Assembly (NCBI GenBank): GCA_963728205.1
Contig: CAVSIV010000004.1
Coordinates: 168,643-232,642 of the forward strand
DNA from: an uncultured Chloroflexia bacterium
GTDB lineage: Bacteria > Chloroflexota > Dehalococcoidia > UBA2979
DNA length: 64,000 nt
Direction: 5' to 3'
In this document: positions 24,416 to 64,000 of the stretch, in pieces
Layout of the letters: the number at the start of each line of letters is the position of its first letter
Position numbering within the stretch: position 1 is the stretch's first letter
Position numbers and translations under genes: made by a program
Notes under the pieces: generated by a model
Seen by the model: only the letters and a program-made list of their open reading frames with translations
Database searches by the model: none
What the model was told of the DNA's origin: nothing

Positions 24416-25457
24416 ATGACGCCGCGTGAGCCGAGCGACGCCGACACCGAACCCCGACGGGTTCCTCGCTTCGATCCCCCGCTCGACTTCGAGCCCGCGC
24501 CCGTCGTCACCGACGAGGGCACCTTCGGGCACCTGCCGGAGCCGGTGCCCGACATCGAACTGGACGAGCCCGGATACCTGCGCGCGACGCTCGCGCGCGT
24601 TGCCGCGTGGCTGCTCGTCGTGGCCGCGGCCGCGTGCCTGCTTCGTGCTCGGCGGGTGGCAGGCCACGGGGCGCGACGTCGCGATCCCCGCGCTGGAGCG
24701 CGGGGTGGCCGCGCTCACGCAGATCGACGAGCTGCTCGCGATGCACCACGGCGACATCGTCGCCGCCGGCGCGAGCCGCGCCGCGCAGCCGGCGGCGCAG
24801 GTGGAGGTGCCGGGCTTCCCCGTGCCGAGCGTGAAGCTGAGCGCGCTCGAGGCGCGCGACGACTCGGCCGCGCGCCAGCGCGACCTGCTGCTGGGCGCGC
24901 CGCCGACGCGATCTACGCGCAACGGGACGGGCGCGCTGCGGACGACGCAGGGCGAGCTGCTGCGACCCGGCATCTTCTCGACGGCCGGCGCCACGCGCCG
25001 CCTGTTCGGCGCGCTGAGCTCCGCCAACCACGACCGCTTCGGCGCACTGCTCTGGCCGCTCGCGATCGCGTGCGGCGTGCTGGCCGCGGCCGTCGTGGCG
25101 CTGGGGCGCGGGCTCGGGACGGTTCGTCGCGCTCGGCGCCGCGCTGGTCGGCGCCGCGGCGCTCACGCTCGTGGTCACGCTGCTCGTGCGCGGGCTCGTG
25201 GCAGTCGTGGGCACCGACGGCAGCACGCTCGCCGGCGAGATCTCCGCGATCACGCGCGCGCTGGTGTGGACGCCGGTGCGCGACGCCGCGTGGTTCGCGC
25301 TCGCCGGGGTCGGCGATCGCGCTGCCGGCGATGCTCGCGGGGCTCGCTTTCGCCGCGGCGGCGGCGCCACCGCGCCCGACGAGCCGCGGGGCGGCGCCGG
25401 CAGCGCGACGTGGCCGCCGCGCTGAGCGCGCGCGGCGCGCACCTCGTCTCGCGTTGA
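24416..25457 (+). CDS. Hypothetical membrane protein, several frameshifts, end uncertain
   Basis: Protein-like segments in successive frames (MTPREPSD.., ALERGVAALTQID.., LWPLAIACGV.., LVWTPVRDAAW). Confidence 0.5.
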
Positions 25458-25570
25458 CGGGATAGTAGAGAAGCAGCACCGAAACCCGACTCGCGAGACG
25501 ACCGCGGGCGCCGGCGGCGTCCACTGGCCTTTGGTCGCGGCCGCGTACCTGGGGTAGCTTCAGCGGTGGG

Positions 25571-26359
25571 ATGGGAGTCTGCGCCACAGCATGCTACGAG
25601 ACGGCAGAGACGTTGGTGATCCGGGCGCGGCCGCTCCCGATGTGGCGCTCGACCGCCATCAGCAAGCAGCTCGCCGCCTCGATGGGCGGCGTGAGCGGGC
25701 TCGACGCCATCAGCAAGCAGTTCGCCGCGTCGATGGGCGGCGTGGTCGGGCGCGACGCCATCAGCAAGCAGTTCGCCGCGTCGGTGGGCAGCTTGACCGG
25801 GCTCGACGCCATCAACAGGCAGTTCGCCCCGGACTTCCAGACTCTGGACGCCGGCGCGTCGTTCCGCGCGCTCCTCGCCCAGAACGCCGCCGCCTACGCG
25901 GTGCGCTCCTCGTCAGTAGTCGGTCTCATCCGCGACAGCTCGACGGACGAGCACTTGATGCGAGTCGTCCGCGGGGTCTCCTCTACCGCGGAAGCGGATC
26001 GCCGCCTCGCAGCTGCGATCCGCGCGGCCGCGCTGGGGGAGCCTCCCCCGGCGATTCCAGACGAACTGGCCGAAGCCGCCCGCGTGACAGTGTCATCGGG
26101 GCGCGTGCGTCGCGATCTGGAAGAGATTCGGGACGCACTCGATCCGGCCACGGACCCACGCGCATCGCGAGAAGCCCTTGTACTTTCCCGTGGTGTGCAG
26201 AGGCAGCACCTCAAGCTTCTGGCAGCTCGCCTTCTCCAGGAGTTGTCCCGCGGGCTATCCGTGCTCCCTGATTGCGATGCGCGCATGGAGACCGCTGTTT
26301 GGCTGACTTTGGTCGGCACGCTGGTCACCTGCTACTTGACGTTTCTCGCAACCCGGTAA
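25571..26359 (+). CDS. Hypothetical protein with 17-aa tandem repeats and a C-terminal TM helix
   Basis: AISKQFAASMGGxxGxD about 3.5 times (51-nt period); C-terminal VWLTLVGTLVTCYLTFL. Confidence 0.55.
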   Translation: MGVCATACYETAETLVIRARPLPMWRSTAISKQLAASMGGVSGLDAISKQFAASMGGVVGRDAISKQFAASVGSLTGLDAINRQFAPDFQTLDAGASFRALLAQNAAAYAVRSSSVVGLIRDSSTDEHLMRVVRGVSSTAEADRRLAAAIRAAALGEPPPAIPDELAEAARVTVSSGRVRRDLEEIRDALDPATDPRASREALVLSRGVQRQHLKLLAARLLQELSRGLSVLPDCDARMETAVWLTLVGTLVTCYLTFLATR

Positions 26360-26460
26360 GCGGGTGCTCGCCGTTCGCCCATGGTCTGTGGGTTTATGGT
26401 GCGAATGACGACGGCCACCTGCCCGACCGGCGGGGCGAAGGGGGTCGCTGGAGCCAAACC

Positions 26461-27951
26461 ATGAGCATCACCGCCTGGGCAATCGTTCTCGTGGCGCTCG
26501 CCTTCATCTTCCCGCGGCTCCACTGCTGGGGCCTCGCGAACTTGTGTCGGCGTAGGCGTAAGCGCTTTCCTGCCTTTGCTTTCCTGTTTGTCTGCATATT
26601 GGTCGCTGCCTGTTCGGCTGCTTCGAGCCATTCCCGAACGCCAATTCCATCCTCGAGCATTTCAGCGACAAGTACGCCCAGAATGGGTCCGCAGGCTCAG
26701 GCGCCCACACCAGCGACCGATGAGCACGCGGTGCTGCCGGAATTTGGAGTCTTCGAATTGCGGCTCGACCGCGACCAGAGCGAGAGCGTCTCATTCCCTC
26801 TCGTCACTATCCCAAGCACCGGATGTGCGCTCGGGGGAGTGCGGTTCGACTGGAGCGTCCGCCAGCCGTATGCCGAAGGGACCGGACCGAGCGTCGAATT
26901 CTTCGACGAGTATCAGGGTGCCCACCTCTCGCTCGGCGCCGGAAGTAGCGGCGAAAGTGAGGCTGGGTTCTGCGATCCCGTCAGCGTGTCCAATCGGAGC
27001 GACACGTCGATCCTCGTCGAGGTTCGCTACGTTGCGGTGATGCCGGGCCCCGCGGAGCCGGTGGGTGCGCCGTCGGCGGCTCAAAGTCCGACCGGAACCG
27101 CTCCGCCCTCCGCTTGTACGGTGTTTGAGCGGGGTACCGCGGTCTCGGTTACGTTCATGGCATCCGACGCCCTCCAGGCCTGTCAATCCTGGATTCAGGC
27201 GCGGGGGCAACAGGGAGAGTTCTGGTCGACGGATGGCGAGCCCACCGAGCAGCAATCGATGGTGTGCATCTTCCGTTACGAGTCGGGCGCGCACGTACAG
27301 GTCGACGACGGCGGCGGGCAGTTCAACGGGCGCACGATCTGCGCTGGATTCGCCGGAACTCCCGGATGGGTCGAGGACCTTCCGGCAGAGCAAGCATCCG
27401 CGACGGCGGCCGCGAACCAGCGTCGAATCGACGCTGCGCTTCGGACGTTGACTTCGGACCTGTCAGACCTCCAGGCCGAATCGCGGGATCTCAGCGATGT
27501 ATCCATTGCCGCTGACCTGACGACGATGCGCGATGCTATCAAGGGCGTATACCAAGATCTCCAAACAACGCTGACCGCCGATACAACGCTGGTATGTGGA
27601 GACGCGGGTGTCGTGGAGGGCGATGTTGGCGCGCTGGAAGGGGACCAAGGCGTGCTGGAGTCGGACGTGTCCGCGTTGAACACGCGCATCGAGTCAGTTC
27701 AGCACTTGCTCTCCATCGTCCCTGCCGACATGCGGGAGTTGACGAGCGCGGAAGCCTCGCTCCCCTCCTACCAGCCGGCAGGCGTCCCGGAGGACGCGCC
27801 CATTCAGCAAGCGGTTCAAGATGGCATACACGCCGTCAGTGGCGCGGAAAGCGCGATCACGAACGTGCGGGCGCAAGCAGCAGCGTTAGTTCAGCAGGCA
27901 CAGGCGTACTCTTCGCAGGCCGATGCGGCGTGCAAGCAAGCGACACCGTAG
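26461..27951 (+). CDS. Hypothetical lipoprotein/secreted protein with coiled-coil C-terminus (start uncertain)
   Basis: Basic patch, hydrophobic stretch and LVAAC lipobox; Pro/Thr linkers; paired Cys. Confidence 0.65.
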   Translation: MSITAWAIVLVALAFIFPRLHCWGLANLCRRRRKRFPAFAFLFVCILVAACSAASSHSRTPIPSSSISATSTPRMGPQAQAPTPATDEHAVLPEFGVFELRLDRDQSESVSFPLVTIPSTGCALGGVRFDWSVRQPYAEGTGPSVEFFDEYQGAHLSLGAGSSGESEAGFCDPVSVSNRSDTSILVEVRYVAVMPGPAEPVGAPSAAQSPTGTAPPSACTVFERGTAVSVTFMASDALQACQSWIQARGQQGEFWSTDGEPTEQQSMVCIFRYESGAHVQVDDGGGQFNGRTICAGFAGTPGWVEDLPAEQASATAAANQRRIDAALRTLTSDLSDLQAESRDLSDVSIAADLTTMRDAIKGVYQDLQTTLTADTTLVCGDAGVVEGDVGALEGDQGVLESDVSALNTRIESVQHLLSIVPADMRELTSAEASLPSYQPAGVPEDAPIQQAVQDGIHAVSGAESAITNVRAQAAALVQQAQAYSSQADAACKQATP

Positions 27952-27978
27952 GCAACCGATTGCAGATGAGAACTAGCG

Positions 27979-28239
27979 CTACTCGACCGGGGCTTGAGCG
28001 GGGCGAAGCGGTCCACGATTGAGCGTCGAGTAGTGTGTGGGGGGAAGCTCAACACCCGCCGCGTCCACCCCGGAAGCCGGTCCCATGCTCACGTCCTGCT
28101 CCGACCCGTCCAGGAAGCGGAGCGTCACGCAGATCGAATCGAACGTGATCACCCGATCGCCGACAAGCAGGTAGCCGTCCCACGAGCCATTCGTAACCGT
28201 GGTGCCCGCGGACCGTACTTCAACGCGCTGCTTCGTCAC
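27979..28239 (-). CDS. Small hypothetical protein
   Basis: 86-aa ORF with AGGAG SD upstream of GTG. Confidence 0.5.
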   Translation of the reverse strand: MTKQRVEVRSAGTTVTNGSWDGYLLVGDRVITFDSICVTLRFLDGSEQDVSMGPASGVDAAGVELPPTHYSTLNRGPLRPAQAPVE

Positions 28240-28321
28240 GTTGGACTCCTTCTACCCCATGGCCTTGTGTAGATTCGGGTGGCGCCCGGGAACAGTCAAG
28301 GGACCGGGGCGCGCTGGGCTT

Positions 28322-28645
28322 TTACCGGCACCCGACCGAGAGGACCGCGCCGACCCTCGTCGCGTCGAAGCACTCCACGGTCACGAGCGTCTCGTGCTCC
28401 GCCCCGGCGATGATGATGGTGACGTACGTGCCTTGCTTCTTCCCGGCACCGCTGTCGGTGACGGTTACGGCGGAGCCACGCCCGGTGCGATCCGGCACCA
28501 CCCATGGGCCCGTGCCGTACTTGGTCTTGGCGACCACGGTGTAGTCCGCGAGTGCCGTCGGCACCGGCGTTGGCGTCGGGTGCGAGCCGCACGCGCTGAG
28601 GATGAGCGCGAGAGCAACAGCGAGTGCGAGCGGTGCGGATTGCAT
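28322..28645 (-). CDS. Small hypothetical lipoprotein
   Basis: MQSAPLALAVALALILSAC lipobox followed by a PTPTP linker. Confidence 0.6.
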   Translation of the reverse strand: MQSAPLALAVALALILSACGSHPTPTPVPTALADYTVVAKTKYGTGPWVVPDRTGRGSAVTVTDSGAGKKQGTYVTIIIAGAEHETLVTVECFDATRVGAVLSVGCR

Positions 28646-28819
28646 ATTGGACCAGCGTATCCGAAGACAGGCCGCCCCCACGACCCCCGTCAGGCCGCCA
28701 GCCGCCAGCGGGCGGCGTGCCTGCGTTGCAGCGAAGAGGAGCGCGACGCCGAACTCGTCAGCCCTCACGGTAGCGATTCGGGTTTCGGTGCTGCTTCTCT
28801 ACTATCCCCCCGTCTCGCG

Positions 28820-28848
28820 TTGACGCTGTGAGATGCCCGGCTTAGCGT
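28820..28848 (+). promoter_or_regulatory. Sigma70-type promoter for the mcl operon
   Basis: TTGACG-17 bp-TAGCGT. Confidence 0.55.
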
Positions 28849-28950: not shown

Positions 28951-30029
28951 ATGCAGCGCAGCCCGCGGGAGTTCTTCAAGCCCCTCGCGCTCGGCGCGCC
29001 CGAGCCCCTGCGCGATATCCCGTTCACGCCCAGCCGCATGATCCACTTCCTCAACGCGGCCAACCCGAAGCATGGTCGCGAAGGTCCCCGAGATGCTGCA
29101 AGCAGGTCGACGTCCTGCTCGGCAACCTCGAGGACGCCGTCCCCGCCGACCAGAAGGTCGCCGCGCGCGAGGGCTTCATCGAGGTCGTCGCAGGCAACGA
29201 CTTCGGCCAGACGTCGGCTGCTGGACGCGCGTGAACAGCCTCGACTCGCCGTGGTTCCTCGACGACGTCATGCGCTTCGTCGAGACCATCGGCGACCGGC
29301 TCGACGTGATCGTCGATCCCGAAGGTGCTCGGCCCCGAGGACATCCACTACGTCGACCGCCTGCTCGCGCAGCTCGAGGCGCGGCGCCAGCGTCACAGCG
29401 TCCGATCCTGCTGCACGCGCATCCTCGAGACCGGCGGCGGCGTGGCGCGCGTCGAGGAGATCGCGCTCGCCAGCCCGCGCATGCAGGGGATGTCCTTCGG
29501 CCCGGCCGACCTCGCCGCCTCGCGGCGCATGAAGACGACGCGCGTCGGCGGCGGTCACCCGTCGTACGTGGTGCGCACGGACCCCGACCCCGAGCACCCG
29601 GACGCGCCGCGCCAGACGGCGCAGCAGGACCCGTGGCACTACTCGATCGCGCGCATGGTCGACGCCTGCGTGAACGCCGACATCCTCCCGTACTACGGCC
29701 CGTTCGGCGACATCTCGGACCCGGTCGGGTGCGAGGACCAGTTCCGCGCCGCGTTCCTGCTCGGGTGCGTGGGCGCGTGGTCGCTGCACCCGAGCCAGAT
29801 CGAGATCGCGCGCCGCGTGTTCAGCCCGGACCCCGACGAGGTGAAGTTCGCGAAGAAGATCATCGACTCCATGCCGGAGGGCGGCGGGGTCGCGATGATC
29901 GACGGCAAGATGCAGGACGACGCGACGTACAAGCAGGCCATGGTGATGTGGAGCCTCGCCGAGCGCATCGCCGAGCGGGACCCGGACATGGCCGCGCAGT
30001 ACGGCATCAGCACGGGAGCCCGCGCCTAG
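28951..30029 (+). CDS. mcl: Malyl-CoA/beta-methylmalyl-CoA lyase-like (HpcH/HpaI-CitE family), frameshifted in this sequence
   Basis: [73 protein letters not shown]. Confidence 0.8.
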
Positions 30030-54222: not shown

Positions 54223-54540
54223 GCACCGACCCCAGTTCGTCGTCGGAGAGGTGTGCTGGGTCCCGGACGCGTCCGTCATCGAGATCAGGTCCAACCCGTA
54301 CACGCAGCTGTACGCCCCGTCCCGGATCGCCACCGGCAGCGCCGACGCCGCGTGGTACGCCACCACTGAGGTCAGCCGGCCCAGGCTCTCGTACGCGTAG
54401 GTGGTCGTCCCCGCGCCCGTCGCCACCAGGTGCGTGCGGTTGCGCACCGCATCCAGTGTGTACGTGCAGCTCGAGAACGTCCCGTGTTCGCGCTCGTCAC
54501 CGACAGCAACCGGTTGGCGTTGTCGTAGGTGTCGCGGGCC
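54223..54540 (-). pseudogene. Degraded RHS core remnant, interrupted by IS21 and resuming at 56825-56866
   Basis: LPVAIRDGAYSCVYGLDLISMTD and DTYDNANRLLSVT match the downstream RHS cassettes. Confidence 0.75.
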
Positions 54541-54667
54541 TGACGACGCTCATCTGAAGTTCCCCAGACCTGCTCACTGAAATTCCCCACCTCCCAGGCG
54601 GTGTGGTCCCTGCAGGGGCTGCTCTCGATGCTGACGCTGCGGCGGCGGCAGCGAGGAGCCGAGGACC

Positions 54668-55960
54668 GTGCTGCGATGGGAGGAAGACGTGGAAGCACAC
54701 GCGCTGCGCCGACGGGGTTGGACGATCGCGGCGATCGCTCGACACCTCGGGCGCGACCGCAAGACCGTGCGGGCCTACCTGCGCGGAGACCGCGAGCCGG
54801 GGAAGCGGCAGCGCGCGGGGACGGACGAGTTCGAGCCGTTCGTCGCGTACGTCGGTGAGCGCCTGCGCGAGGACCCGCACCTGTGGGCGAGCGTGCTCTA
54901 CGACGAGGTCGTCGCGCTCGGCTATCCGCGCTCGTACCCGTCGTTCACGCGCTCGCTGCGCGATCGCAGACTGCGCCCGCCGTGCCTCGCCTGCGCCGGC
55001 GTGAAGGGTCGAGTGACGGTCGAGATCGCCCACCCGCCCGGGGACGAGATGCAGTGGGACTGGCTCGATCTCGGCGAGGCGCCGTGGGGCGGCAAGGCGA
55101 TCCTGCTGGTCGCGGCGCTCTCGGCATCGGGCCGGGTGCGCGCGGTCTTCGCCGATGGGCAGGACCAGGCGCACGTCGTCGAGGGCATCGACGCCGTGCT
55201 GCGCCGCTTCGGCGGAACCGCGCGGCGCTGGCGCTTCGATCGCATGACCGGCGTCGTCGACACGCGCACCGGCAAGGTGCTCGCGAGCTTCGCCGCGGTC
55301 GCGAAGTACTACGGTGTCGGCATCGACGTCTGCCCGCCGCGAGCCGGCAACCGCAAGGGCGTGGTCGAGGCCGCCAACCGCTTCCTGCAGCGACGCTGGT
55401 GGCGCACCGCCCGCGTCTCCACTCAGCAGGAGGCGCAGGCCGCGCTCGACCGCTTTACGTCGACGACCGCCGACGGACGCCGGCGGGGGGACCAGCTCAT
55501 CCGCGTGCTCGCCGAGGCCGAGCCGCTGCTGCCGCTCCCGGCCGAACCCTACCCGGCTACGCTCGAGGTCGAGCGCACCGTCGGCGCCTCCGCGCTCGTC
55601 GCCTTCCGCGGCAACCGCTACTCGGTGCCGCCCGGGCTCGCCGGGGCCACGGTCATCCTGCGCCAGCGCCTGGACGAGCCTCGCCTACGGGTGCTCACCA
55701 CCGACGGCGTCATCGTGGCGGAGCACGACCTCGCGCGAGCGGGTGCGGGGCAGCTCGTGCGCAGCACTGAGCACGCCCAGGCGCTGGAGCACGCGGTGCT
55801 CGAGCGCTTCACGTCCGACCCGCCGTGCCGGCGCAAGGCGAACCGGCCACCGGGGTCGGCGGCGCTCGCAGAGGCGGCGAAGCTGCGCCCCGACGTGCCC
55901 GGTGCCGTCGTGCACATCGACCTCGCCCGCTGGGCACGCGCGGCGGAGGCGGCACGGTGA
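54668..55960 (+). CDS. istA: IS21 transposase
   Basis: N-terminal HTH, PG.EMQWDW, FDRM, KGVVE, GNRYSVP. Confidence 0.92.
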   Translation: MLRWEEDVEAHALRRRGWTIAAIARHLGRDRKTVRAYLRGDREPGKRQRAGTDEFEPFVAYVGERLREDPHLWASVLYDEVVALGYPRSYPSFTRSLRDRRLRPPCLACAGVKGRVTVEIAHPPGDEMQWDWLDLGEAPWGGKAILLVAALSASGRVRAVFADGQDQAHVVEGIDAVLRRFGGTARRWRFDRMTGVVDTRTGKVLASFAAVAKYYGVGIDVCPPRAGNRKGVVEAANRFLQRRWWRTARVSTQQEAQAALDRFTSTTADGRRRGDQLIRVLAEAEPLLPLPAEPYPATLEVERTVGASALVAFRGNRYSVPPGLAGATVILRQRLDEPRLRVLTTDGVIVAEHDLARAGAGQLVRSTEHAQALEHAVLERFTSDPPCRRKANRPPGSAALAEAAKLRPDVPGAVVHIDLARWARAAEAAR

Positions 55961-56748
55961 CGGAGGCGCAGACCTATCAGCAGCTGCGTGCGCACCTCGC
56001 GTACCTGCGGCTCGACGCCGCGGCCGAGGCCCTGGCGCAGGAGCTCGACGCGGCGCGCGCGGGCAAGCTCTCGCATACCGTCTTCCTCGAGCACCTGCTC
56101 GGTATCGAGGTCACGGCGACCAGCGAGCGTCGGCGCGCCGGCCGTCTGCGCCTCGCCGGCTTCCCCGCCCCCTGGCGGCTCGAGGACTTCGACTTCGACG
56201 CGCAGCCCGGCCTCGACCGCGCGCTCGTCACCGACCTCGCGACGCTGCGCTTCGTCGACGACGCCGCGAACGTGCTCTTCATCGGACCACCCGGCGTCGG
56301 CAAGACGCACCTGGCGATCGCGCTCGGCCACCTCGCGATCGACGCCGGCCATCGCGTCTACTACACGACCGCCGCCGACCTCGCGGCGCGCTGCCACCGC
56401 GCCGCGATCGAGGGCCGCTGGGCCAACACGATGCGCTTCTTCGCGGCGCCGCAGCTGCTCATCGTCGACGAGCTTGGGTACCTACCCCTGCCGCCCGAGG
56501 CCGCCTCCGCGCTCTTCCAGGTCGTGGCCCGGCGCTACCTCAAGGGCAGCATCGTGCTGACCACCAACCGCGGCATCACCGAGTGGGGCGAGATCTTCGA
56601 CGACTCCACCGTCGCCGCCGCCATGCTCGACCGCCTGCTGCACCGAGCGACCGTCGTCGCGATCGACGGCGAGAGCTACCGCCTGCGCACGCACCAGGCA
56701 CGCATCGACCAGCTCCGAAAGGGGATCGCGCCCGTGACCAAACGCTAG
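55957..56748 (+). CDS. istB: IS21 helper ATPase
   Basis: GPPGVGKTHLA, LLIVDELGY, AMLDRLLH, GESYR. Confidence 0.95.
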   Translation: MTEAQTYQQLRAHLAYLRLDAAAEALAQELDAARAGKLSHTVFLEHLLGIEVTATSERRRAGRLRLAGFPAPWRLEDFDFDAQPGLDRALVTDLATLRFVDDAANVLFIGPPGVGKTHLAIALGHLAIDAGHRVYYTTAADLAARCHRAAIEGRWANTMRFFAAPQLLIVDELGYLPLPPEAASALFQVVARRYLKGSIVLTTNRGITEWGEIFDDSTVAAAMLDRLLHRATVVAIDGESYRLRTHQARIDQLRKGIAPVTKR

Positions 56749-56900
56749 GATGAAGCTCGATCACCCGCCCGCGAGGTGGGGAATTTCGATGAGCGACCCT
56801 GGGGAATTTCGCTGAGCCGCGTCAGGCCCTCACCCCGTTCGGGTACGCCGTCGTCGTCAGGTTGCTCGACGCGGTTTCGACGCCCGTACCGGCGCCGACG

Positions 56901-57327: not shown

Positions 57328-58815
57328 CTACTCCTTCTCCGCGAGTGGGAGCGCCATTGAGCCCTGGTGCGGATTCGCGATCGAGTTGCGCGTCGATGAT
57401 CCCGTCTGACCTTCACCGTGCTGCCGGAACTCGCGCCCCGCGACGCCCGCGGCAACAGCATCCGCAGCCACCGTGTGCGCGTAGACTGATAGCCCGACCG
57501 TCTCCGGCAGCTGAGGAATAATCACGCTTGCGCCTGCGACCCCAAGGTCGAGCCCGACCTGCACCCATCCACCTTCAGAGTCACCCGACAACTGCGAAGC
57601 AACGTCAAAACCGGTCGCTGTGAGATTGGCGCCCACTGCCAGTACAGCCAAAGCGCCGCACCCGAGCGATGCGCCGCCAAGCGACGCGACCTCACAAGTC
57701 GCTGCAGCACCACCGAGAACGGAACCAACGATGGCAGCGCCCGCGCCGAGTCGATGACATTGAATTCCGAGAAGGCTACAGAGCCCCGTCGGGTCCGTTA
57801 GTAGCGCCGGATTCCCCTGTGCGTACGCGTATCGCTGCGCGAACCCCACCGGGTCCCGCGAGATGAACCGTCCGGTCGTCGGGTCGTAGTAGCGCGCCCG
57901 CAGGAAGTAGTACCCGGTGTCGCCGGAGCCGTCATCGGCCTGCTCCCCCGTGAACTTCCACGCCGTCGCCGTCGTCCCCGTGCGCGCCGTCACCGCCCCG
58001 AACGCGTCGTACACGAACGTGTCCGTCACCGCTCCCGTCCCGTCGGTGAGGTCGGACACCGACCCCAGTCCGTCGTACGAGAGGTAGTGCTGGGTCCCGG
58101 AGCCGTCCGTCATCGAGATCAGGTCCAGTCCGTACACGTAGCTGTACGTCCCGTCCTGGATCACCACCGGCAGCTTCGACGCCGCGTCCCACGTGTACGC
58201 CGTCGTCGTCCCGTTCACCGTGTGGCTCAGCCGCAGCCCGTTGCCGTCGTACACCGAGGACGAGGTCACCCCGCCCACCACCGACTGTGTGAGCCGGTTC
58301 TCGTGGTCGTACGTGAACGTGTCCGACCCCGCGCCCGTCTGGTTCCCGTTCGCGTCGTACGTGTAACTCACGCCGCCCGCAGCGGTCATCTCGTTCGCGT
58401 CGTCGTACGTGTACGACGTGCTGTTCTTCGCCGTCCGGTTCCCGATCGCGTCGTACGTGTACGTGTCCGTCGTCGGCCCCGGGTAGGTCACCGAGGTCAG
58501 CCGGTCCAGGCTGTCGTAGGAGTACGTGGTCGTCCCCGCGCCGGCTCCCGTCGCGACCATCTGGGTGCGGTTCCCCACCGCGTCCAGCGTGTATGTGAAG
58601 CTCGAGAACGTACCCGTGTTCGCGTTCGTCACCGAGAGGAGGCGGTTCGCGTTGTCGTAGGTGTCGGTCGCCGACACCCCGTTCGGGTACGTCGTCGTCG
58701 TCAGGTTCCCGGCGTCGTCGTAAGCGTAGCTCGTCTGGTTGGTTAGCCAGTCCGTCACTGTCGACATGCGGTTGTCCGCATCGTAGGTGTAGCTCACCTG
58801 CTTCGTGTCCGGGTA
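57328..58815 (-). CDS. Orphan RHS core + C-terminal toxin cassette 4 (5'-truncated)
   Basis: YD repeats, YYFLRARYYDP..GRFISRDP, DPTGLC, hydrophobic tip. Confidence 0.85.
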   Translation of the reverse strand, partial: YPDTKQVSYTYDADNRMSTVTDWLTNQTSYAYDDAGNLTTTTYPNGVSATDTYDNANRLLSVTNANTGTFSSFTYTLDAVGNRTQMVATGAGAGTTTYSYDSLDRLTSVTYPGPTTDTYTYDAIGNRTAKNSTSYTYDDANEMTAAGGVSYTYDANGNQTGAGSDTFTYDHENRLTQSVVGGVTSSSVYDGNGLRLSHTVNGTTTAYTWDAASKLPVVIQDGTYSYVYGLDLISMTDGSGTQHYLSYDGLGSVSDLTDGTGAVTDTFVYDAFGAVTARTGTTATAWKFTGEQADDGSGDTGYYFLRARYYDPTTGRFISRDPVGFAQRYAYAQGNPALLTDPTGLCSLLGIQCHRLGAGAAIVGSVLGGAAATCEVASLGGASLGCGALAVLAVGANLTATGFDVASQLSGDSEGGWVQVGLDLGVAGASVIIPQLPETVGLSVYAHTVAADAVAAGVAGREFRQHGEGQTGSSTRNSIANPHQGSMALPLAEKE

Positions 58816-58860
58816 CGTGATGCTCGTGCGGCGTCGTATACCCTTACTCCACAGATTGAA

Positions 58861-59241
58861 CTATCCGTTGAGTAGCATGGAGATGACGACGAGAGCGATC
58901 ATCGCTGCGATGACGATGCCAGCAGTTAAGTACGGATGGTCGAAGAGAGCTCGTTCAACCCACGTGCCCGTCCCGATGACGTTATCACGGCGCTGTTGTT
59001 GTGTTTGAAGCCGTGTCCGGCGTAAGAGATGGTAGATCGCGACTCCGAACGGTATCGTCGATGGAACGAGAAGTGGCACAGGGATGTACTGCTGCAGTTG
59101 ATGGATCCCGAAGCTCGCGAGAACCGGTGCAAAGAAGAACGCGACAGCTACCGCGATCCACCGGACGAGAAGCTCACTCTCGCGATCCGCTTCGGGAGTC
59201 CCCCCACTGCGACGGCGCAACTCGTCTCTACGGCTCGTCAA
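58861..59241 (-). CDS. Putative membrane immunity protein (cassette 3)
   Basis: About three TM helices, directly downstream of the toxin tip. Confidence 0.6.
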   Translation of the reverse strand: MTSRRDELRRRSGGTPEADRESELLVRWIAVAVAFFFAPVLASFGIHQLQQYIPVPLLVPSTIPFGVAIYHLLRRTRLQTQQQRRDNVIGTGTWVERALFDHPYLTAGIVIAAMIALVVISMLLNG

Positions 59242-59245
59242 TGCA

Positions 59246-60106
59246 TCACTCCTTGGCGGCCGTCAACACGCTCTCACCGGCGACCGCAGGCGCACCGCGC
59301 TCGCTGCGGAACACGGAGATGGCATCCAACGGAACGGTCAATGCGTGGTAAGCGATACTCGCGGAGCGGCCGGTCAACGCTGCGTACTCAGCACTCAAAG
59401 CAGGCATCTGCGATACGCTCCTCGCAACGGCCCCCTCTACACCGAGCCCGACAACAGTGCCTGCGAACCGCGGTCGGCTGCCCCCTGGAGGCACCCGCCG
59501 CTGAAGATCTGGTGCCCGAGCACCCCGCAGAGTCCGAGCGGGTCGACCAGCAACGCGGGATTGTCATTCGCATACGCATAGCGCTGCGCGAACTCCACCG
59601 GGTCACGCGAGATGAACCGCCCCGTGGTCGGGTCGTAGTAGCGGGCCCGCAGGAAGTAGTACCCAGTGTCGCCGGAGCCGTCGTCGGCCTGCTCGCCCGT
59701 GAACTTCCACGCCGTCGCCGTCGTCCCCGTGCGCGCCGTCACCGCACCGAACGCGTCGTACACGAACGTGTCCGTCACCGCGCCCGTCCCGTCGGTGAGG
59801 TCGGACACCGACCCCAGCCCGTCGTACGAGAGGTAGTGCTGGGTCCCGGAGCCGTCCGTCATCGCGATCAGGTCCAGCCCGTACACGCAGCTGTACGTCC
59901 CGTCCTGGATCACCACCGGCAGCGCCGACGCCGCGTCCCACGTGTACGTCGTCGTCGTCCCGTTCACCGTGTGGCTCAGGCCCAGCCCGTTGCCGTCGTA
60001 CACGGACGACGACGTCACCCCGCCCACGACCGACTGGGTGAGCCGGTTCTCGTGGTCGTACGTGAACGTGTCCGACCCCGCGCCCGTCTGGTTCCCGTTC
60101 GCGTCA
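59246..60106 (-). pseudogene. Orphan RHS core + C-terminal toxin cassette 3 (short, frameshifted near 59490)
   Basis: RHS core ending DPLGLC; tip continues in a shifted frame to TAAKE-stop. Confidence 0.75.
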
Positions 60107-60153
60107 TAGCGGGATGGGACTTCGGATGGGCAACGGCGAGGCTCAGAAACGGA

Positions 60154-60426
60154 TCATTGTTTCGAGAATCCTTTCCCCATAAACAAGTATCCGGGGATCA
60201 TAGCGAGTCCGACAAGCGCGCCCACGATTAAGTTCCAAATCGATGGACCGCCGATGAGTGTCGCAGCGATGCTACCTGCGACCAGCCCTGACGCAGCCCC
60301 GAATACAGCCCAGGCGATAGCCGGCAACTTGATCGCATGATGCCTCGTTAGGCGTCCCACGACGACTGCAACTGTGTAAATCAGAGCAAATACTAAGAAG
60401 GTCGAGACGACGCCATGCGCAGACAT
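60154..60426 (-). CDS. Putative membrane immunity protein (cassette 2)
   Basis: 90-aa, about three TM helices, AAGGAG SD. Confidence 0.65.
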   Translation of the reverse strand: MSAHGVVSTFLVFALIYTVAVVVGRLTRHHAIKLPAIAWAVFGAASGLVAGSIAATLIGGPSIWNLIVGALVGLAMIPGYLFMGKGFSKQ

Positions 60427-60434
60427 CGGTAGCG

Positions 60435-62022
60435 CTACTCCTTTGTTGAAAGCGGCTCAGTCGATGAGGGCGCCGCCACCGTGCCACTCACGGGTGCGAG
60501 AGTCGCTGTGGCCTGCGGCGGACGAACCGCCAAGTCGATGAGGAGGGCGCCGCCGGTCCCGACCGCGGCGCCAGTTGCGACGCCTACCCCGCAGACTATG
60601 GGCCAAAGCGGGCCGGTGTAGAAGGCAGTACAGGTTACGGCGGGGAAGTAGGTGCTTAACGCAACCAAAGCGACGCCGATCGATGCACGCTCGACAACGT
60701 CGTGTTCTGGCGTTAGCGGGATGACTGCGAGCGCCGCAGCACGTCCGATCGTACGAGTCGCATCGAACGCGCAGTCGCCCCAGTCTCTAGGGCTAAAGCT
60801 GCGCCGGCAGAGGCCGCTCGGATCGATGAGCAGCGCTGGGTTGTCATTCGCATATGCATAGCGTTGCGGGAACTCCACCGGGTCACGTGAGATGAACCGT
60901 CCGGTCGTCGGGTCGTAGTAGCGCGCCCGCAGGAAGTAGTACCCGGTGTCGCCGGAGCCGTCATCGGCCTGCTCCCCCGTGAACTTCCACGCCGTCGCCG
61001 TCGTCCCCGTGCGCGCCGTCACCGCCCCGAACGCGTCGTACACGAACGTGTCCGTCACCGCTCCCGTCCCGTCGGTGAGGTCGGACACCGACCCCAGTCC
61101 GTCGTACGAGAGGTAGTGCTGGGTCCCGGAGCCGTCCGTCATCGAGAATCAGGTCCAGTCCGTACACGTAGCTGTACGTCCCGTCCTGGATCACCACCGG
61201 CAGTTGCGACGCCGCGTCCCACGTGTACGTCGTCGTCGTCCCGTTCACCGTGTGGCTCAGCCGCAGCCCGTTCCCGTAGTACACCGACGACGAGGTCACG
61301 CCCCCCACCACGGCCTGCGTCAGCCGGTTCTCGTGGTCGTGCGTGAACGTGTCCGACCCCGAGCCCGTCTGGTTCCCGTTCGCGTCGTACGTGTAGGTCA
61401 CGCCGCCGGCGGCGGTCATCTCGTTCGCGTCGTCGTACGTGTACGACGTCGTGTTCTTCGCTGTCCGATTCCCGATCGCGTCGTAGGTGTACGCGTCCGT
61501 CGTCGGGCCCGCGTAGGTCACCGACGTCAGTCGGTCCAGGCTGTCGTAGGAGTACGACGTCGTCCCCGCGCCGGCGCCCGTCGCCACCATCTGCGTGCGG
61601 TTGCCCACCGCGTCCAGCGTGTACGTGAAGCTCGAGAATGTCCCGCTGTTCGCGTTCGTCACCGACAGCAGCCGGTTCGCGTGGTCGTAGGTGCCGCTGG
61701 CCGTGACCCCGTTCGGGTACGTCGTCGTCGTCAGGTTGCCGGCGTCGTCGTAGCGTAGCTCGTCTGGTTCGACAGCCAGTCCGTCACCGTCGACATGCGG
61801 TTGTCCGCGTCGTAGGTGTACGTCACCTGCTTCGAGTCCGGCTAAGTGATGCTCGTGCGGTTCCCCGCGTCGTCGTACTCGTACGACACCACGCTCGAGC
61901 CCGGATACGTGATCGAGGTCGTCCGACCGTCCGCGTCGTACGCATAGCTCGTCGTCCCCTGCGGATCCGTCATCGAGGTCTGGCGGTTCGCGTCGTCGTA
62001 CGCGTAGCTGACCGTGTCGACC
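60435..62022 (-). pseudogene. Orphan RHS core + C-terminal toxin cassette 2 (frameshifts/stop in repeat region)
   Basis: YD repeats split over frames, DPSGLC, hydrophobic tip ending STKE. Confidence 0.8.
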
Positions 62023-62024
62023 GA

Positions 62025-62324
62025 TTAGCGCCTCCTCTTTGACTGTTGAGCCGACGCAACGAAGTCCGTAAGGACGCGCCGTTCCCAAGCATACTTCACG
62101 CCGGATGCTAGCACTGCGCTCACCACAAGGACCGTCAGAGGCAACCCGGTGTACGGATCGAGTTGGAGAGCCATAGCCATACCAAATATCAAGACGATGC
62201 TCGCTGCTAGTCCGAATCCCAGGCGGGCGGCCATTGTCAGATCAGCCCTGCGGAACAGAACAAGAGTTAGCACGATAGTCGGCGCACTTACGATCCACAG
62301 AACAATCACGATGTAGAGAGGCAT
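62025..62324 (-). CDS. Putative membrane immunity protein (cassette 1)
   Basis: About three TM helices, downstream of AAGGAG-TGA. Confidence 0.62.
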   Translation of the reverse strand: MPLYIVIVLWIVSAPTIVLTLVLFRRADLTMAARLGFGLAASIVLIFGMAMALQLDPYTGLPLTVLVVSAVLASGVKYAWERRVLTDFVASAQQSKRRR

Positions 62325-62332
62325 AGGAGCGG

Positions 62333-64000
62333 TCACTCCTTCTGGATCGAAGCCGATGTCATCTGCTTTGCCACGGTGGACATCTGGAGATCCGCCTGAA
62401 GCTGCCAAGCGTCCAGAGTCGTGCCGACAAATGGGATGAAGTTCGGTACGAGAACGCCGGCGGTCGCTCGTGCGAGTGCACCCCGACAGTCACCGCTGAA
62501 CCCCTCCGACCGGCATGTCCCGTAAGCACCGATCGCACTCAGCGCGTCGGCGACATACCGGGATGGCAGGACCAAGACATCCACGGCACCTGCGGGCAGC
62601 GGACCGCCCGCGAGGAACGCTGCCGAAATTGCCGTATCGGCGAAGGTGTTGATGCCGATCCCGAACGCGTCGAGTGACCGAATCGTCTTTGGACTCTGGA
62701 GGGAAGCGTCGAGCGCCGATGCCGCGTCACCTATGCACTCCCACGGCTTGAGCCAGGCGCAGAGGCCCAGCGGATCGACCATCAGAGCTGGGTTGTCGCT
62801 CGCATACACATACCGCTGTGCGAACTCCACCGGGTCGCGCGAGATGAACCGCCCCGTGGCCGGGTCGTAGTAGCGCGCCCGCAGGAAGTAGTACCCGGTG
62901 TCGCCCGAGCCGTCGTCGGCCTGCTCCCCCGTGAACTTCCACGCCGTCGCCGTCGTCCCCGTGCGCGCCGTCACCGCCCCGAACGCGTCGTACACGAACG
63001 TGTCCGTCACGGCGCCCGTCCCGTCGGTGAGGTCCGACACCGACCCCAGCCCATCGTACGAGAGGTAGTGCTGGGTCCCGGAGCCGTCCGCCATCGAGAT
63101 CAGGTCCAGCCCGTACACGTAGCTGTACGTCCCGTCCTGGAGCACCACCGGCAGCGCCGACACCGCGTCCCACGTGTACGTCGTCGTCGTCCCGTTCACC
63201 GTGTGGCTCAGCCGCAGCCCGTTGCCGTCGTACACCGAGGACGAGGTCACCCCGCCCACCACCGCCTGCGTCAGCCGGTTCTCGTGGTCGTACGTGAACG
63301 TATCCGACCCCGCGCCCGTCTGGTTCCCGTTCGCATCGTACGTGTAGCTCACGCCGCCGGCGGCGGTCATCTCGTTCGCGTCGTCGTACGTGTACGACGT
63401 CGTGTTCTTCGCCGTCCGATTCCCGATCGCGTCGTACGTGTAGCTGTCCGTCGTCGGGCCCGGGTACGTCACCGAGGTGAGCCGGTCCAGGCTGTCGTAC
63501 GAGTACGAGGTGGTCCCCGCCCCCGCTCCCGTCGCCACCAGTTGCGTGCGGTTCCCCACCGCGTCCAGCGTGTAGGTAAAGCTCGAGAACGTCCCGCTGT
63601 TGGCGTTCGTCACCGACAGCAGCCGGTTCGCGTTGTCGTAGGTGTCGCTCGCCGCGACCCCGTTCGGGTAGGTCGTCGTCGTCAGGTTGCCGGCGTCGTC
63701 GTACGCGTAGCTCGTCTGGTTCGAGAGCCAGTCCGTCACCGTCGCCATGCGGTTGTCCGCATCGTAGGTGTAGCTCACCTGCTTCGTGTCCGGGTACGTG
63801 ATGCTCGTGCGGTTTCCCGCGTCGTCGTACGCGTACGACACCACGTTCGAGCCCGGATCGGTGATCGACGTCGTGCGACCGTCCGCGTCGTACGCGTAGT
63901 TCGTCGTCCCCTGCGGGTCGGTCATCGAGGTCTGGCGGTTCGCGTTGTCGTACGCGTAGCTGACCGTGTCGACCTTCGTCCCGCCGTTCCAGTGCTCGAG
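62333..64000 (-). CDS. RHS/YD-repeat protein, C-terminal part (frame open beyond window), possibly the full-length toxin
   Basis: Uninterrupted YD repeats, RHS core, DPLGLC, tip ending IQKE. Confidence 0.9.
   Translation of the reverse strand, partial: LEHWNGGTKVDTVSYAYDNANRQTSMTDPQGTTNYAYDADGRTTSITDPGSNVVSYAYDDAGNRTSITYPDTKQVSYTYDADNRMATVTDWLSNQTSYAYDDAGNLTTTTYPNGVAASDTYDNANRLLSVTNANSGTFSSFTYTLDAVGNRTQLVATGAGAGTTSYSYDSLDRLTSVTYPGPTTDSYTYDAIGNRTAKNTTSYTYDDANEMTAAGGVSYTYDANGNQTGAGSDTFTYDHENRLTQAVVGGVTSSSVYDGNGLRLSHTVNGTTTTYTWDAVSALPVVLQDGTYSYVYGLDLISMADGSGTQHYLSYDGLGSVSDLTDGTGAVTDTFVYDAFGAVTARTGTTATAWKFTGEQADDGSGDTGYYFLRARYYDPATGRFISRDPVEFAQRYVYASDNPALMVDPLGLCAWLKPWECIGDAASALDASLQSPKTIRSLDAFGIGINTFADTAISAAFLAGGPLPAGAVDVLVLPSRYVADALSAIGAYGTCRSEGFSGDCRGALARATAGVLVPNFIPFVGTTLDAWQLQADLQMSTVAKQMTSASIQKE

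Follow-up and report, generated by a model that had tools for sequence, protein, structure and literature searches.

We analysed a 64,000-nucleotide (nt) stretch of the genome of an uncultured Chloroflexia bacterium, called here the window (G000:C4:168643-232642, from a 4.13-Mb assembly of six contigs with about 72.5% GC), in which a 3,350-bp segment bounded by inverted repeats lies between the end of one gene and the promoter region of a gene coding for an HpcH/citrate-lyase-beta-like protein. The initial annotation, made from the letters alone, had described this segment as a transposase-less cargo element with an unusually long target duplication, and had proposed that it is non-autonomous and mobilised in trans, possibly a mini-casposon or a long-duplication transposon. 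Our results show that the segment is an insertion, and that it belongs to a small family of four terminal-inverted-repeat transposons present in this bacterial order, one of which carries a stand-alone Cas1 gene, Cas1 being the family of proteins that captures spacers for CRISPR. The features of the locus and the members of the family are collected in Table 1.

Table 1. Features of the inserted element and its borders (positions in the window), and the four members of the family
Feature	Position or extent	Strand	Description
Left terminal inverted repeat	25459..25494	+	Tip GGGATAGTAGAGAAG...; tip common to the G003, G423 and G448 elements
Right terminal inverted repeat	28773..28808	-	Found by repeat search
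Left copy of target duplication	25445..25458	.	14 nt, CGTCTCGCGTTGAC; holds the stop codon TGA of the upstream gene (25455-25457)
Right copy of target duplication	28811..28824	.	Exact 14 nt
Two extra C	28809..28810	.	Separate the right duplication copy from its repeat arm
Promoter-like motif	28820..28848	+	TTGACG (28820-28825)-N17-TAGCGT (28843-28848), upstream of the HpcH/citrate-lyase-beta-like gene
Cargo ORF1	25571..26359	+	262 aa; hydrophobic tail at the C-terminus; 51-nt tandem repeat in three copies (25654-25831); no family match
Cargo ORF2	26461..27951	+	496 aa; N-terminal membrane anchor/lipobox-like segment; beta-rich modules; long helical bundle; unnamed family
Cargo ORF3	27979..28239	-	86 aa; no family match
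Cargo ORF4	28322..28768	-	Lipoprotein-like; 108 aa from ATG 28648 (signal peptide ...LSAC|G) or 148 aa from GTG 28768
Window (G000) member	3,350 bp		Duplication CGTCTCGCGTTGAC; no enzyme gene
G003 member	At least 5.1 kb, middle unassembled		Duplication GCGTACGGCTTGAC; stand-alone Cas1
G423 member	C36:2639-9610, 6,972 bp		Duplication GGCACACCATTGAC, read from the TTGAC side; no enzyme gene
G448 member	C8:77618-79232, 1,615 bp		Duplication ACTCGATTCTTGAC; no enzyme by end/pattern analysis, interior ORFs not scanned

The element, its ends and its empty site

The repeat search confirmed the inverted repeats that had been reported: the two arms of 36 nt are complementary at 35/36 positions (97%), the outermost 31 nt are perfect, and their tips enclose the 3,350 bp from 25459 to 28808. 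Outside both arms lies the exact 14-nt direct repeat CGTCTCGCGTTGAC; including the G that follows, which is ambiguous, extends it to 15 nt, and reading it from 25443/28809 extends it to 16 nt with one mismatch. Taken alone, the window also allows a duplication of 15-16 nt; by comparison with the three related elements described below, all of which show 14 nt, it should be read as 14 nt, and of the 14-16 bp originally given only the shorter value stands. The two additional C that separate the right copy from its arm, a spacer that none of the other three family members has, may be real or a homopolymer miscall, since the length of the C-run at 28806-28811 is unreliable in an assembly that carries small indels and a fold-back on contig C2. 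The lower GC that had been noticed in the interior was also borne out (65.7%, against 72.4-72.6% for the large contigs and 72-79% for the flanks).

The whole genome was scanned for direct repeats of at least 11 nt abutting inverted repeats of at least 19/24 nt, within 15 kb. Strong pairs (24/24) were obtained only at this element and at the C2 fold-back; the remaining pairs matched at 19-23/24, and those outside the fold-back, at 19-21/24 and G+C-rich, were judged to be due to chance. The fold-back itself (G000:C2:1-14577) is a contig start that matches itself in inverted orientation, with 95% identity over 14.6 kb, as is typical of a long-read assembly artefact.

An empty site in relatives had been named as a point to look for, and it is present in G001, a genome of the same genus: there a single contig carries both flanks, separated by about 115 bp and with the target present once, ...CCCCCGTCGAGCGTTGACGCTG... 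When the 8.5-kb neighbourhood was searched against 40 relatives, no match listed outside G000 covered the interior of the element; G002 and G003 have a different synteny at this site. The segment is therefore an insertion. The C2 fold-back and the small indels could raise the suspicion of an assembly artefact or a chance repeat. Such an origin is extremely improbable in view of the empty site, of the three further elements with the same architecture, and of sequences obtained independently. One soil run contains two 151-nt contigs identical to ORF2 (the open reading frames, ORFs, are numbered as in Table 1), with nothing covering the junctions, and an independent public assembly contains a stand-alone contig of 3,387 bp with two proteins (P0156, P0157) matching ORF1 and ORF4. 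In that contig, a 233-aa protein equals ORF1 over 148 residues and then departs by a frameshift (one indel), and a 148-aa protein equals ORF4, so that it covers at least 25571-28768; its length is near that of the 3,350-bp element, and it could stand for a site that is polymorphic for the insertion, for the element in a second context, for a free or circular form of it, or simply for a break in the assembly.

The position of the insertion deserves attention. The upstream frame (24426..25457) stops inside the left copy of the duplication, and its homologue in G001 ends ...GTC GAG CGT TGA, with the stop within the same TTGAC. On the other side, the downstream lyase-like gene starts with the ATG at 28951 and is preceded by a promoter-like motif, whose -35 TTGAC is made up of the last five bases of the right copy. 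TTGAC-N18-TAGC(G/T)T is found upstream of the lyase orthologue in 10/10 relatives whose upstream region was extracted; a scan with an E. coli-type consensus did not call a promoter at 28820-28848, where the -10 matches at 3/6 positions. The conservation of this motif suggests that it is a promoter. The duplication restores the upstream stop codon on the left and the downstream -35 box on the right, and the insertion would therefore be nearly neutral. Its acquisition appears to be recent, judging from a GC of 65.7% in a 72.5% genome and from the near-identical ends and duplication.

Both flanking genes show changes of frame, near 29067 in the lyase-like gene (28951-30011), with a second shift a few codons on, and near 25070, 25310 and 25400 in the upstream gene. 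They resemble the indel noise that long-read assemblies produce; alternatively, the genes are pseudogenes.

A family of four elements

The repeat of the window is single in G000. Its exact 31-mer, the 20-mer of its tip and the 21-mer of its inner part were unmatched elsewhere in public genome contigs, as were an exact 21-mer in viral contigs and an exact 22-mer in metagenome contigs. Among other genomes, a 29-mer of the repeat with up to 3 mismatches was found in 0/400 of the class, and blastn with the 72-nt end recovered it in 0/98 of the order, with matches only in the G+C-rich part beyond nt 33, and a plasmid collection gave chance-level matches to the repeat only. The repeated elements and transposases of the host are of the IS21 and IS110 types, and their ends are unrelated to those studied here. 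The three rve matches in G000 are all IS21 IstA, and neither PF12762 (DDE_Tnp_IS1595) nor PF01526 (Tn3-type transposase) has a match in this genome.

Several repeated sequences of the host were recorded in these searches. The window contains a 2.29-kb IS21-family element (54540-56828, IstA/IstB), 99.9% identical to a copy at G000:C1:847260-849549, and a third, divergent IstA/IstB pair is present at G000:C6:335303-338050. At 57821-63974 the window holds three paralogous segments of about 1.0-1.2 kb that are 92-93% identical (C4:226463-227473, 229449-230664 and 231401-232616).

The search for autonomous partners that had been recommended found no further copy of the exact repeat; the degenerate tip is shared by an element in G003 that was found through a search of the order for Cas1. 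Degenerate patterns of the shared end bases were searched in 99 genomes of the order, with the reversed pattern as control. The pattern common to four ends (those of the window and of G003) occurs at one further place, G423:C36:2639 (reversed control, 0), and the exact pattern TTGACGGGATARNAGA at four places, which are the window, G003, G423 and G448:C8 (reversed control, 0 exact). Twelve matches to the tip pattern with one mismatch were about as frequent as the control matches, and no partner end was found at ten candidate sites outside the G448 locus (eleven stretches of about 2-20 kb each); they were not accepted as further members and were set aside as chance or undecided matches.

The G423 element has imperfect ends (18/30) and an exact 14-nt duplication, and abuts a cysteine-desulfurase-like gene; it carries genes for a TelA-like protein, an Ephrin_rec_like/bactofilin-repeat protein and proteins of unknown function, with neither Cas1 nor a transposase. 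In the G448 element the ends are 29/30 identical and the duplication is again exactly 14 nt. This locus (L069, G448:C8:77618-79232) also contains a third, internal copy of the end at 78621, with its own TTGAC flank, which suggests a nested or rearranged pair of small elements.

In all four members the tips read GGGATA(G/A)NAGA, and the duplication, of exactly 14 nt, ends in TTGAC next to one of the tips. This TTGAC is the -35 hexamer of a promoter in at least two members. The passenger genes are unrelated between members, and tblastx among the elements gave noise only. Apart from the Cas1 of G003, no transposase was recognisable in the assembled parts of the elements; for this and the other statements on enzyme genes, the interior ORFs of the G448 element were not scanned. 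The four elements constitute a small, apparently undescribed transposon family with terminal inverted repeats, of which the window's element is a member.

A direct repeat placed beside inverted arms is also the layout of the attL and attR sites of integrative elements, and in one locus (L037) a homologue of ORF2 lies directly downstream of a large serine recombinase gene. The segment might thus be what remains of an integrative element, mobilisable in cis; the 14 nt would be the attachment core used by a tyrosine or serine recombinase, and the inverted repeats the arms to which it binds. Serine recombinases exchange at 2 bp, and the four loci have four different 14-nt repeats sharing only TTGAC, as expected of a target duplication and not of a fixed att core. 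Host flanks and element arms are alike at only 3/12 positions (counted by eye), and no recombinase gene was found in or beside the members. We consider this explanation very improbable.

The G003 element and its Cas1

Cas1 (PF01867) is present in 12/99 genomes of the order, including that of G003, which belongs to the same genus as the host of the window. The G003 protein has 534 aa (Pfam, 144 bits; domain at aa 20-301), with a C-terminal extension of about 230 aa that contains a Cys cluster. Its gene is the only cas gene of a 5.1-kb contig (L045), and Cas2 has no match in G003. The element is distributed over two contigs and lies between C159:5127 and C259:3015, and its two ends are 40/46 identical to each other. 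The first end is found 323 nt past the stop codon of Cas1, in ...GCGTACGGCTTGAC|GGGATAGGAGACAGG..., where the junction TTGAC|GGGATAG is identical to that of the window's left end. Outside it lie PIG-L and NUDIX genes, which in G000 are at C6:1427105-1428849, with lexA beside PIG-L. The second end, on the other contig (L055/L057), is located just upstream of lexA, in ...GTCAAGCCGTACGC|GGGATAGGAGACGGG... Both ends are flanked by the 14-nt direct repeat GCGTACGGCTTGAC, which overlaps the -35 of the lexA promoter (TTGACG-N17-TAGTGT). In G000 and G001 the lexA promoter is uninterrupted, and this is the empty site of the G003 element. The assembled parts of the element also code for an MFS transporter and for unknown proteins.

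At L057 900-970 (G003:C259), the element lies immediately upstream of TTGACG-N17-TAGTGT and of a GAAC-rich box, both conserved in G000 and G001. An insertion at this promoter might touch on SOS regulation.

Other Cas1 genes were recorded in the same searches. A contig of a Solirubrobacterales metagenome-assembled genome carries two homologues of the G003 protein with 39-40% identity, separated by about 20 kb (L060 4058-11489 and L061 4089-11517); the same set of unknown genes (about 1,160, 199, 270 and 155-169 aa) stands before each of them, and no CRISPR-associated domain was found in the neighbouring ORFs that were scanned. In another genome of the order (L046 8095-12221, G454:C1), a divergent Cas1 gene stands beside Cas9 in a type II CRISPR locus, which adjoins a Type ISP restriction enzyme and a NotI-like restriction-modification pair.

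Cargo genes

The four interior ORFs have the codon-position GC pattern expected of genes, with a GC at third codon positions (GC3) below that of host genes. In agreement with the initial annotation, no transposase, integrase or other recombinase, Cas1 or PolB domain was found in them with Pfam, PHROGs, PADLOC and NCBIfam; these collections gave no function for the cargo ORFs and no named family above its curated cut-off, and Rfam had no match in the element. The membrane or lipoprotein character that had been attributed to the cargo agrees with membrane-anchored or lipoprotein-like features of the ORFs, and as far as this evidence goes we infer that the cargo consists of envelope-associated proteins.

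The 51-nt repeats of ORF1 are arranged head to tail, are 88-93% identical and encode the 17-aa unit DAISKQFAAS.GG..G.; this part of the gene (25654-25831) has a host-like GC3 of 0.92-1.0, unlike the rest of the element. A protein atlas search with ORF1 returned only low-score matches.

ORF2 has 188 HMMER matches at E<=1e-3, the best of them 39-44% identical over aa 221-494. Its predicted structure has a mean pLDDT (predicted local distance difference test) of 73.8, with values above 90 in most ten-residue blocks from aa 221, and a fold search with the model found only generic beta-sandwich and helical-bundle matches, none of them specific. Its relatives in genomes and metagenomes (L033-L038) lie in variable islands beside genes for large serine recombinases, NERD, McrBC, Mrr and STAND-like ATPases, with neither clean inverted repeats nor the other three cargo genes in these loci. 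At L037 286-2955, the homologue that follows the large serine recombinase is near NERD and McrBC+EVE genes; at L035 3873-7441, homologues are located between genes for an Mrr-type endonuclease, an AAA_16 ATPase and DUF5677/HNH-repeat proteins. Both settings are variable and resemble defence islands.

Discussion

Casposons are rare, mostly archaeal elements that have been proposed as the ancestors of the CRISPR adaptation machinery. To our knowledge they are known only as large autonomous elements with PolB, and compared with them the four elements described here, of 1.6-7 kb, are small. We propose, with moderate confidence, that the window's element belongs to a casposon-like family, in which it is a non-autonomous member with cargo, and that a Cas1-type integrase aimed at TTGAC moved it in trans. 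That the element lacks an enzyme of its own, as had been suggested, is a property of the insertion itself; its mobilisation in trans, and Cas1 as the mobilising enzyme, we infer. Trans-mobilisation by such an integrase is favoured because the family fits the properties of casposons and because the sole enzyme gene found in it is a subterminal, stand-alone Cas1. The suggested link to casposons rests on this association in one of the four members, on the 14-nt duplication and on the architecture of the ends.

According to the cited texts, casposases make 14-15-bp duplications, and the casposon of M. mazei has a 31-bp repeat with a 3'-terminal C and a duplication of 14 bp overlapping a gene's end, and owes its target specificity to a short motif located at one of the edges of that duplication (PMC6977970). 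Bacterial casposons lie in intergenic DNA and their duplication length is element-specific (PMC4779613), and in one bacterial casposase of family 3 a zinc-binding domain and a helix-turn-helix are fused to Cas1 (PMC4046053). As far as these descriptions go, our elements resemble casposons, especially those of bacterial family 3, in their terminal inverted repeats of about 30-46 nt, the 14-nt duplication, the 3'-terminal C and their location between genes or at the extreme end of one, and the stand-alone Cas1 of the G003 member has a Cys-rich C-terminal extension, as occurs in the family 3 casposase. They differ from them in that the window's element has neither Cas1 nor PolB, and in that the target of the family is TTGAC or the -35 of a promoter, and not the end of a tRNA or aEF-2 gene. 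The idea of a mini-casposon or long-duplication transposon is thus supported by a family with a Cas1-carrying member; PolB was not found in the family, nor Cas1 in the host.

A 14-nt duplication implies two strand transfers 14 nt apart. In the mechanism we propose, an autonomous relative, such as that of G003, would encode a Cas1-type integrase (casposase) that binds both ends of the element; the 3'-OH of the terminal C of each end would attack the two strands of the target, 14 nt apart, at a site containing TTGAC, and gap repair would then duplicate the 14 nt.

Several results weigh against this proposal. Cas1 is present in only 1/4 members, and PF01867 has no match in G000, G423 or G448 (genomes that are 79-89% complete), so that no casposase was found for supply in trans in G000 itself (89% complete). 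The repeats of the window and of G003 agree at 7/7 and 12/15 positions of the tip, at 15/25, and at 20/36 overall, and an enzyme of G003 need not recognise a repeat that is alike only at its tip. Among solved structures, the closest to the Cas1 of G003 are a CRISPR Cas1 (4n06, 3.9e-21) and, with a slightly poorer score, a casposase (6OPM, 3e-19); its distant homologues (L060, L061 and L062; 39-60% identity) show no frame of repeat plus duplication within 10 kb. PolB was not found in G003 with PF00136. PF03175 has none in G000, G003, G423 and G448, and the control genomes were equally silent with it. Finally, another transposase could be encoded in the middle of the G003 element, which the assembly lacks.

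That three of the four members lack Cas1, with no match to it in their genomes, gives room to an alternative, in which the family is moved by a transposase other than Cas1, for example a DDE enzyme with widely spaced active sites of the IS1202/ISTde1 kind, and the Cas1 of G003 is a passenger. The transposase gene would then lie in the part of the G003 element that was not assembled, or on elements or plasmids outside the sample. That the members carry unrelated passengers makes a passenger Cas1 conceivable, and long duplications are also known from DDE families: for the ISTde1 subgroup of IS1202, duplications of 15-17 bp are described, with occasional passenger genes and occurrence in Chloroflexi among others (bioRxiv 10.1101/2022.12.17.520857), so that the premise of the initial annotation, which set Cas1 enzymes apart by duplications of this length, was too narrow. 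As described there, this subgroup resembles our family in its unusually long duplication, its inverted-repeat ends, its occasional passengers and its presence in Chloroflexi; it is unlike it in that its ends begin with 5'-TGT (bioRxiv 10.1101/2022.12.17.520857), against GGGATAG here, and in that a duplication of 14 nt in 4/4 members falls outside the range of 15-17. In addition, no DDE gene was found in the assembled parts of the elements, the rve matches of the host are confined to IS21, with the IS1595 and Tn3 types absent, and the Cas1 gene of G003 is subterminal and without linkage to CRISPR. On balance, we regard a non-Cas1 transposase as unlikely, albeit the main alternative.

Other DDE systems share single traits with the window's element. 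Mobile insertion cassettes derived from Tn3 are, like it, devoid of a transposase, and have inverted repeats of about 36-38 nt that start with a run of G, and passenger genes. The duplications of the Tn3 family are of 5 bp, against 14 nt here, and no Tn3 transposase was found in the host. DDE elements of the TnGBS/ISLre2 type are alike in that they target sigma-70-type promoters near the -35; they insert 15-17 bp upstream of it, with short duplications, while in our family the -35 hexamer itself supplies the last 5 nt of the 14-nt duplication. A 16-bp repeat is known from the ISSod11 subgroup of the IS1595 family. A literature search for duplications of 14-17 bp gave nothing useful.

Returning to the Cas1-type integrase, a broader possibility, which we put forward only tentatively, is that Chloroflexota harbour a lineage of Cas1-driven transposons that has dispensed with PolB, recognises the TTGAC of -35 boxes at an exact offset of 14 nt, and has given rise to derivatives of 1.6-7 kb that contain only cargo and are moved in trans. 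In the literature searched, from which the supplementary tables of the casposon papers were missing, no report of a non-autonomous casposon was found; in one paper that uses both words, "non-autonomous" refers to IS605-like elements. If this broader possibility is true, the window's element would be the first casposon of a non-autonomous kind to be described, and a casposase would act as an ordinary cut-and-paste transposase does, with miniature and cargo satellites of its own. A bacterial family with a stand-alone Cas1, short cargo-only relatives and a readable TTGAC target would broaden the known roles of Cas1 integrases. It would also provide a tractable test system, in which ends and natural targets are known for four elements and relatives supply empty sites. 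Whatever the enzyme, an element that inserts right at -35 boxes and rebuilds the promoter and the neighbouring stop codon is a transposon that spares its host.

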